DNA from: a virus
Lineage: Duplodnaviria; Heunggongvirae; Uroviricota; Caudoviricetes
Virus record (IMG/VR): IMGVR_UViG_2671180567_000005
Reading direction: 5' to 3' (one strand)
Length of the DNA stretch: 15,647 bases
Part shown: positions 12,499 to 13,211 of the stretch, piece after piece
How the letters are laid out: each line of letters begins with the position of its first letter
How positions within the stretch are numbered: the stretch's first letter is position 1
Program-made: the position numbers and the translations under genes
The notes under the pieces: model-generated
What the model was told of the DNA's origin: nothing
Database searches by the model: none
The model's input: only the letters and a program-made list of their open reading frames with translations

Positions 12499-13211
12499 TT
12501 AGAGGGAGGTCCTGTGAGCCTGCTTATCATTTTGTGTAAACGCTTTTTTTAAAAGTGACCATCAAGGTGGCTACCAAGCTCGATTATAAAGTAGCATTGT
12601 CCATTTCTGTGATGTGGATTGCCAGCCAATCACTTTGTTTGCTGACTTGTAGTCGGGGATATCGGGGGCACCTTGCATTTCCTGACGGCGTGCTATACGA
12701 CACCTCACTGTACACACGTAGTTACAAATTTACCCCAGCGCAATGGTCTCAGGAGAGGGGCGATTAATTTCATCAGATATTCTTCGTCAGAAGGTGGTGA
12801 TTATCCATGATATTTGTGTATCGACTTTTTATAAGAGGTTTCTGGTCGGGATTATATAAAACTGCGGACACGTCGTATGCAAGAAGGCGCTACGGTTTTC
12901 TGATAAACCTTTCGCCAGCATCATCTGCTTCAGCCCAGTAAAAAGAGACGCGAAAAATGCACAACAGGCACCACACGTCATGCATGGATTAGGATTGCTC
13001 ATAAATTCACTACTTGAGTATCAGTAATGTTAAGGGATATCAGGAAATATTTTATGAGAAAGAAAAACAGCAAACTGGTCAAAAATAACTCAAAGAAGGC
13101 TTGGAATATTCTTATTGAATTCAACGTAGTTTATTGATTTTTCGTGTATGTTTTTAAGACATTTATTCCAAGAAAAATTTATAACCTTTTGATTTTGCGA
13201 TTCGGTATCAT

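Follow-up and report, generated by a model that had tools for sequence, protein, structure and literature searches.

Putative remnants of three genes and a predicted phage attachment arm between nleF and the serU core of a defective lambdoid prophage

Overview of the segment

Between the effector gene nleF and the serU att core, the window (the whole stretch of 15,647 nucleotides analysed here, IMG/VR record IMGVR_UViG_2671180567_000005) contains a segment of 0.7 kb, 12499-13211, that the initial annotation had left unassigned. Judged by nucleotide homology, this segment is a mosaic made of broken pieces of three genes and of an attachment-site arm, and it harbours no hidden gene. Four patches each match a separate annotated feature elsewhere, namely an IS256-family pseudogene, the 3' end of pinE, the 5' end of ykgJ, and the attP arm. 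These patches were found by searching complete E. coli genomes and phage records, and their limits were taken from local alignments to the fetched loci (numbered with an L below). The resulting features, including the core that lies outside the segment, are as follows.

12499-12514, plus strand: nleF 3' flank, about 16 nt from the nleF stop to the IS end, aligning with the nleF flank of 2013C-4538 (L005) with a 5-nt indel
about 12515-12693, minus strand: putative IS256-family end relic, by homology to the 2013C-4538 locus (L005)
12694-12715: 22 nt joining the IS and pin relics, covered by no alignment
12716-12859, plus strand: putative Pin-type invertase 3' relic, by homology to pinE and to the A10 pin pseudogene
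12860-12914, plus strand: native 3' flank of pin, cut at ...CTTTCG, by homology to A10 (L004) and FDAARGOS_1293 (L002)
12912-13002, minus strand: putative ykgJ-like 5' relic, by homology to K-12 ykgJ; a PGAP pseudogene
13003-13092, minus strand: native 5' region of a phage ykgJ-like gene, by homology to the serU prophages L011-L013
13093-13211, plus strand: predicted attP P arm, shared with free serU phages
13212-13272, plus strand: att core, the 3' 61 nt of tRNA-Ser (serU), outside the segment

The coordinates and the description that the initial annotation gave for 12499-13211 are correct. The patch of mid-range GC that it noticed, followed by an AT-rich tail, is confirmed by the GC contents of nleF (37.0%), 12560-12960 (45.1%), 12961-13211 (31.1%) and the core (62.3%), and this patch is not a chance fluctuation, since it coincides with three stretches that match genes with E values of 1e-17 to 1e-36 in 28 Gb of E. 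coli genomes. No ORF exceeds 70 aa, as had been stated, and those touching the segment are 12555-12767 (plus strand, 70 aa, GTG start), 12829-13002 (minus strand, 57 aa) and 13144-13353 (plus strand, 69 aa); the 27-codon ORF at 13054-13137 translates exactly as given before. Nucleotide and translated searches returned no single full-length gene or IS match spanning 12499-13211; a match of this kind would have overturned the idea of an unassigned segment. Two features had been missed, as the final 119 nt correspond to the P arm of attP and 13003-13092 to the upstream region of a ykgJ-like gene. Regarding the origins that had been proposed, an IS fragment is borne out for about 12515-12693 only, as an IS256-family end relic. 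The idea of a relic of an earlier element at the same tRNA site holds insofar as the pin 3' and ykgJ-like 5' relics are remnants of phage-end modules, but these remnants do not demonstrate that a separate element once occupied the site. The decayed effector gene finds no support, as no part of 12499-13211 is effector-like.

Pfam was scanned with the 70-, 57- and 27-aa ORFs and with the relic peptides after frame repair, and NCBIfam with the same set minus the 57-aa ORF. These scans of the short conceptual peptides of the segment reported nothing significant. Because the fragments are too short for profile scans, we rely on DNA homology, and the IS256, pin and ykgJ assignments rest on nucleotide homology to annotated genes together with short tblastn matches. 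The three gene pieces are presumably non-functional today.

Prophage setting and distribution

The interval 12400-13300 matches the E. coli O145 str. RM9872 chromosome at 100% identity, as reported by genome search and alignment. Further right, 13000-13900 shows 5 differences over 901 positions (99.4%) with this chromosome, despite the identity over 12400-13300. The window therefore derives from a close relative of RM9872 rather than from that strain. The name of nleF (11929-12498) is that assigned by PGAP in a 100%-identical record. In RM9872, the annotated order is gpJ, lom, tail-fibre genes, nleB2, nleC (pseudogene), a tail-fibre-assembly fragment, nleH (pseudogene), nleF, a YkgJ-family pseudogene, yodB, zinT, and msrQP, and this gene order identifies the window as the right end of a lambdoid prophage together with its chromosomal junction. 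The RM9872 prophage covers 46 kb and carries a frameshifted integrase gene and two IS3 insertions. An intact serU is located at its opposite end, 46 kb off, beside the frameshifted integrase, and the interval between the two serU copies contains a single integrase and a single set of structural genes. Mapping the RM9872 annotation onto the window also places sodC, encoding a Cu/Zn superoxide dismutase, at 2686-3213 on the minus strand, between the tail-assembly genes and gpJ; sodC is a further cargo gene, within the prophage tail module.

The arrangement from nleF to the core, counted at 80% query coverage or more in complete E. coli genomes, is found in 110 of 5426 of them. Among the best 60 of these 110 matching records, identity ranges from 99.9 to 100%, and these 60 include O145:H28, O157:H16, O111:H2, O2:H16 and untyped strains, isolated from humans, cattle, pigs, poultry, dogs, and other sources. 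Since the 60 inspected copies are near-identical, they carry no signal either way on selection in this lineage.

Relics of three genes

The patch next to nleF is assigned to the end of an IS256-family element. It comprises the terminal ~35 nt and the last ~45 transposase codons, with the stop at 12549-12551, and it is decayed by frameshifts and by a 26-nt deletion, so that the codons are spread over three frames, with readable pieces (HAVRKCKV.., ..SQKWTM.., ..FIIELGSHLDGHF*) in shifted frames. Positions 12400-12693, which include the nleF end, are 76% identical to the 2013C-4538 locus (L005 2399-2715), and the IS relic alone shares 69% identity with it (E 2e-17). In 2013C-4538, nleF is followed by a 635-nt IS256-family transposase pseudogene called by PGAP, and the matched region overlaps the 3' end of this pseudogene. 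The C-terminal translation of the 2013C-4538 pseudogene matches the Pfam family Transposase_mut (PF00872; E 9.8e-15, profile positions 314-377 out of 379), while the 65-aa conceptual peptide of the window itself returns no Pfam match, the link to PF00872 running through the DNA homology. An intact transposase ORF of ~400 aa with its DDE motif is absent from the relic. Other IS copies begin matching at the base equivalent to 12515/12516, which indicates an IS terminus at this point. This end (about 12515) is the only one found, instead of two terminal inverted repeats with a target-site duplication, and the other side of the relic ends at 12693, inside the transposase gene.

Other EHEC prophages carry this IS relic after nleF as well. 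Relics of the IS end are further found just 3' of unrelated cargo genes, namely nleF, an nleG pseudogene in PPompW, and uilS on a pO26 plasmid; the coordinates of these IS-end relics in the fetched loci are 2509-3178 in L005, 3277-3374 and 8904-8969 in L017 (PPompW), and 2501-2631 in L009. It is suggested that the IS256-family end travels with cargo cassettes or marks their border.

The second relic is attributed to a serine DNA invertase gene of the Pin/Hin/Gin type, of which it represents the 3' end. It covers the last ~47 codons, equivalent to PinE residues ~138-184, which form the HTH part, and ends at a stop codon at 12857-12859, with a 2-nt insertion near 12749 breaking the frame. This patch shares 76% identity with the final 143 nt of K-12 pinE (L008 1501-1643) and 80% with a pin pseudogene of strain A10 (L004). 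A tblastn search with PinE against the window aligns residues 152-182 at 61% identity (E 4e-7). Pfam reports a weak HTH_7 hit on the pin peptide (E 0.14, 12.8 bits against a cut-off of 23.8). The N-terminal resolvase catalytic domain with its active-site serine is absent, nothing pin-like being found upstream of the equivalent of residue ~138. On its 3' side, the homology continues into the flank of the gene, up to 12914 with A10 (L004) and up to 12895 with FDAARGOS_1293 (L002). Past CTTTCG, the A10 and FDAARGOS_1293 loci agree with each other and the window departs from both.

The 70-aa ORF at 12555-12767 is explained by these two patches. It runs antisense through the IS relic and then enters the pin frame, ending in ...RSYKFTPAQWSQERGD* as compared with RRPKLTPEQWAQAGR in PinE, and it is a chance read-through of the two relics.

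The third relic, on the minus strand, corresponds to the start of a ykgJ-like gene. Its ATG is at 13002-13000, followed by codons 1-30, which have lost 1 nt near 12952 and retain the first CxxCxxCC motif only. The relic is 93% identical to the start of K-12 ykgJ (L003 2001-2098) and, across 91 nt, shows 87% identity with the H0002 ykgJ-like gene of VT1-Sakai, and tblastn with YkgJ reports matches of residues 1-21 and 7-30 in two frames. PGAP already marks it in RM9872 as a frameshifted, incomplete YkgJ-family pseudogene. A full CxxCxxCC domain (PF03692) in an open frame is absent, and the 37-aa repaired peptide gives no Pfam match, whereas K-12 YkgJ and the ykgJ-like protein of STEC1585 (L011) do match PF03692, the latter at E 6e-12. 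At the same place, an intact ykgJ-like gene of 109 aa is present in the serU prophages of STEC1585 and M3 (L011, L012), and that of FHI_NMBU_10 (L013) carries at this position a ykgJ-like gene with an internal stop. The ykgJ-like gene is the last one before attR in several serU prophages (L011 2679-3008, L012 2694-3008, L013 2676-3008), and a frameshifted ykgJ-like copy is found beside nleA on plasmid p14EC017c (L014 2725-3008).

The upstream region of this gene, 13003-13092, is 83-90% identical to DNA upstream of the ykgJ-like genes in the STEC1585, M3 and FHI_NMBU_10 prophages. It has no relative in K-12, where the homology ends 8 nt upstream of the ATG. Inspection by eye reveals no LexA box in 13003-13092; VT1-Sakai carries one upstream of dinI and ykgJ'. 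A truncation point of ykgJ' shared by VT1-Sakai and PPompW (L017) was considered and dropped, as VT1-Sakai reaches 22 nt further against K-12 and the PPompW copy probably continues at low identity.

The attachment arm and the att core

The last patch of the segment, 13093-13211, is identified by homology as the P arm of the attP of serU-integrating lambdoid phages. It is 84-89% identical to the core-adjacent DNA of the free phages ev099, PhiR70_1 and mEp332 and of the SerU-LTIIb prophage, and it is likewise found in the prophage of FDAARGOS_1293. The left-hand neighbours differ among these carriers, and a block that stays constant beside an invariant core while its left neighbours vary behaves as expected of an attP P arm. 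The left limit of the arm is at about 13093. On its right, identity with the 3' part of tRNA-Ser (serU) begins at 13212 and ends at 13272; this core is invariant in all seven aligned loci and is annotated as a partial tRNA-Ser in SerU-LTIIb. ARAGORN reports no whole tRNA in the window.

Several short motifs surround the core. Sequence matches to the IHF consensus are found on either side of it, at 13182-13194 (minus strand) and 13277-13289. The window contains 3 occurrences of this consensus (WATCAANNNNTTR) as compared with 0.68 expected, two of the three being those that flank the core. The P arm also contains a direct repeat, TTGATTTT(T/G)CG, at 13134 and 13189 with a spacing of 55 nt, which is present in ev099 too, and an inverted repeat, CTTGGAATA/TATTCCAAG. 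Both repeats belong to blocks invariant across the seven loci, except for one variable base in the direct repeat. These repeats and the IHF-consensus sites may be sites for recombination proteins in the P arm. The stretch 13093-13211 would be the only part of the segment with a sequence-specific role, as the arm used by integrase, IHF, and excisionase during excision. A working integrase and excisionase were not found in the same element, the RM9872 integrase beside serU, at a site beyond the window, being annotated as frameshifted; as RM9872 is the closest complete genome, the role of the P arm is probably vestigial.

In the free phages ev099, PhiR70_1 and mEp332, the match with the chromosome extends past the 3' part of the tRNA, over 279 nt further downstream of serU. 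The shared block of 340 bp covers 13212-13551 of the window and 2620-2959 of ev099 (L010), ending in ...GAAGGGGTCAATA, and these three phages carry an unusually long copy of host sequence around the attachment site. In FDAARGOS_1293 (L002, 3123-6122), the serU 3' copy at the prophage end is followed by another island instead of yodB, encoding a DUF6387 protein, an HTH regulator, an H-NS-like protein, and a DUF6404 protein, which points to tandem elements at serU.

Coding and RNA potential

The 27-codon ORF at 13054-13137 (MRKKNSKLVKNNSKKAWNILIEFNVVY) is very improbable as a real small-protein gene. An AGGAA lies 7 nt upstream of its ATG, and its frame is open to the same stop in the STEC1585, M3 and FHI_NMBU_10 prophages, where an in-frame ATG 7 codons downstream opens a 20-aa ORF. 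However, the ATG of the window is ATC in all three of these ykgJ-type relatives, and their ATG is CTG in the window, so that the candidate gene would hang on a lineage-specific start codon. In ev099 and FDAARGOS_1293, the frame lacks a start codon and is closed earlier; SerU-LTIIb also lacks the ATG and has a stop codon immediately upstream. Over the codons shared with STEC1585, about 5 replacement and 2 silent differences fit neutral drift. The 3' half of the ORF lies within the P arm, whose conservation has reasons at the DNA level, and neither Pfam nor NCBIfam returns a match. The ORF is regarded as unsupported, a small residual probability being left to it. It is also highly unlikely that the segment encodes a small regulatory RNA, for instance one that would begin in the DNA upstream of the ykgJ-like relic and proceed toward nleF as an antisense transcript. 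The ends of EHEC prophages are known sources of sRNAs, and 13003-13092, the 5' region of a minus-strand gene that was once expressed, has been kept and is aimed at nleF. Yet the sRNA locus envisaged by the initial annotation gains nothing from the computational tests, as Rfam 15 reports no match at E<=1 on either strand of 12499-13211, its matches falling on the tRNA fragment only, and the fold energies, scanned on both strands, equal those of shuffled sequences (z +0.17 and +0.10 for 13003-13211, -0.09 for 12485-12600). Promoter-like and terminator-like sites are not in excess over shuffles: no promoter-like site is found in 12499-13211, and the sole terminator-like site, at 12746-12761, is at chance level. 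Moreover, the G-to-C change that gives the 27-codon ORF of the window its ATG also alters a TGnTAAAAT-like element, read by eye in the relatives. Broader functional readings of 12912-13092 have slim prospects: a conserved right border of the effector loci of lambdoid prophages that would fire a promoter toward the cargo, yielding an antisense or read-through RNA that modulates nleF, or a recurrent recombination landing pad for new effector cassettes, or, as a lesser possibility, a genuine basic small protein of 20-27 codons in ykgJ-type serU phages.

Apart from these tests, Rfam reported a 'Plastid-psbl-rps4 3UTR' candidate on 13219-13270 (minus strand), which was rejected at 40.9 bits, below the gathering score of 68, and taken as a tRNA-like artefact.

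Origin of the segment

The segment very probably represents the scar zone that marks the cargo end of a defective, serU-integrated lambdoid prophage. The ancestral layout, kept in three serU prophages, consists of the tail-fibre genes, the minus-strand ykgJ-like gene, its upstream region, the P arm and the core. In STEC1585, M3 and FHI_NMBU_10, the same 209 nt come after the ykgJ-like gene, and the core and yodB are then found at equal spacing. As compared with VT1-Sakai, the window is 97% identical up to 9233 and again only from 12912, two points that are 69 nt apart in VT1-Sakai, so that the tail-fibre module and ykgJ' are separated by an insertion of 3.7 kb (9234-12911). This cargo contains nleB2, nleC', a tail-fibre-assembly fragment, nleH' and nleF, together with the IS256-family end and the pin 3' end with its flank. 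In the Stx2 phage of strain 12E129, nleC alone lies between the same two landmarks. The layouts of VT1-Sakai and 12E129 indicate that the cargo locus sits between the tail-fibre genes and the ykgJ-like end gene.

In this lineage, the cargo would have grown to 3.7 kb, and the right junction, at a TCG/CG microhomology near 12912-14, would have removed the 3' two-thirds of the ykgJ-like gene. The rearrangement presumably proceeded by illegitimate or IS-associated recombination, the order and the mechanism of these steps being likewise presumptive. This history fits the effector loci and the ykgJ-derived DNA at the ends of lambdoid prophages in O145:H28, as described in PMC8112680.

Two other readings may be weighed against this one. 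It is hardly credible that the ykgJ-like patch is the secondary attachment site 'attB-in-PP_2' for another phage (Nakamura et al. 2021). According to PMC8112680, DNA derived from ykgJ-ecpE at lambdoid prophage ends acts as an attachment site, and the published homology of 309 bp is reproduced here for VT1-Sakai (L007 2479-2785 against K-12 L003 1978-2284, 84%). However, the same paper locates the 96-bp attB-in-PP_2 site between ykgJ and ecpE, on the upstream side of the ATG, its position within the 309 bp being deduced from the wording, whereas the window and K-12 cease to be homologous 8 nt before the ATG (L003 2098), and 13011-13092 bears no relation to that intergenic region. Alignment indicates that the intergenic stretch shared by VT1-Sakai and K-12, up to L003 2284, is absent from the window. 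A more serious competitor, though still an unlikely one, derives the right-hand 300 nt (ykgJ', its upstream DNA and the P arm) from an older, separate serU prophage, into which the phage with the effectors would later have integrated or with which it would have recombined; today's prophage would then be a hybrid, or a prophage-in-prophage that has collapsed. The window indeed resembles right ends of the Stx-phage type to the left of 12912, and the ykgJ-type serU prophages to the right of it, and prophage-in-prophage structures in O145:H28 are documented in PMC8112680. Against this, RM9872 contains a single integrase gene and no second set of structural genes between its two serU copies, and phages of the VT1-Sakai type also have ykgJ' straight after the tail-fibre module, so that a single lineage with inserted cargo explains the data equally well. 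A hybrid prophage would alter the history of the segment and not its identity.

Comparison with known prophage ends

The scar zone at the cargo end shares its position, from the tail fibres to attR, with the exchangeable effector loci (EELs) of EHEC and EPEC lambdoid prophages, as these are cited in PMC8112680. EELs also contain T3SS effector genes amid fragments of IS and phage genes, in AT-rich effector DNA, and nothing essential differs, except that this locus is at serU and ends in a pin'/ykgJ' junction. We found no description of this pin'/ykgJ' junction in the literature. Similar to the window, VT1-Sakai (Sp15) and related Stx phages with the H0002/dinI module exhibit a minus-strand ykgJ-like 5' fragment after their tail-fibre/cargo module. 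These Stx phages retain about 38 ykgJ codons, 190 nt of ykgJ/ecpE-like intergenic DNA, dinI, and the LexA box, while in the window the 30 retained codons adjoin an unrelated upstream region and then the serU P arm.

The serU prophages of STEC1585, M3 and FHI_NMBU_10 share with the window the ykgJ start, the 209 nt of upstream region and P arm, the core and the chromosomal flank, with 83-90% identity in the phage part. In contrast to the window, STEC1585 and M3 possess the whole ykgJ-like gene and have no effector cargo before it within 2.7 kb to the left. The attP sites of ev099, PhiR70_1 and mEp332 comprise the same 119-nt arm and core, with unrelated DNA to the left of the arm. An integrase is annotated in ev099, whereas that of the RM9872 prophage is frameshifted. 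Lastly, e14 pinE belongs to the same gene family as the pin relic and is also located near an att end, at a tail-fibre end. As compared with e14 pinE, the relic is reduced to about 47 codons of the C-terminal HTH part, with a frameshift, and is devoid of the catalytic domain and of an invertible segment.

Significance

The segment is an ordinary sequence of an already known kind, gene debris of an effector locus next to a prophage att arm, and the result has little import beyond annotation. No gene is hidden in it. Two relics that had not been annotated before (IS256' and pin') are added to the ykgJ' already called by PGAP, and an apparent gap in the map is closed. The reconstructed history, in which cargo came to lie after the tail-fibre module and before a ykgJ-like end gene, provides a clean example of the growth of an effector locus, and the feature map may help to delimit effector cassettes or to design att-junction PCRs in O145:H28 and related strains.
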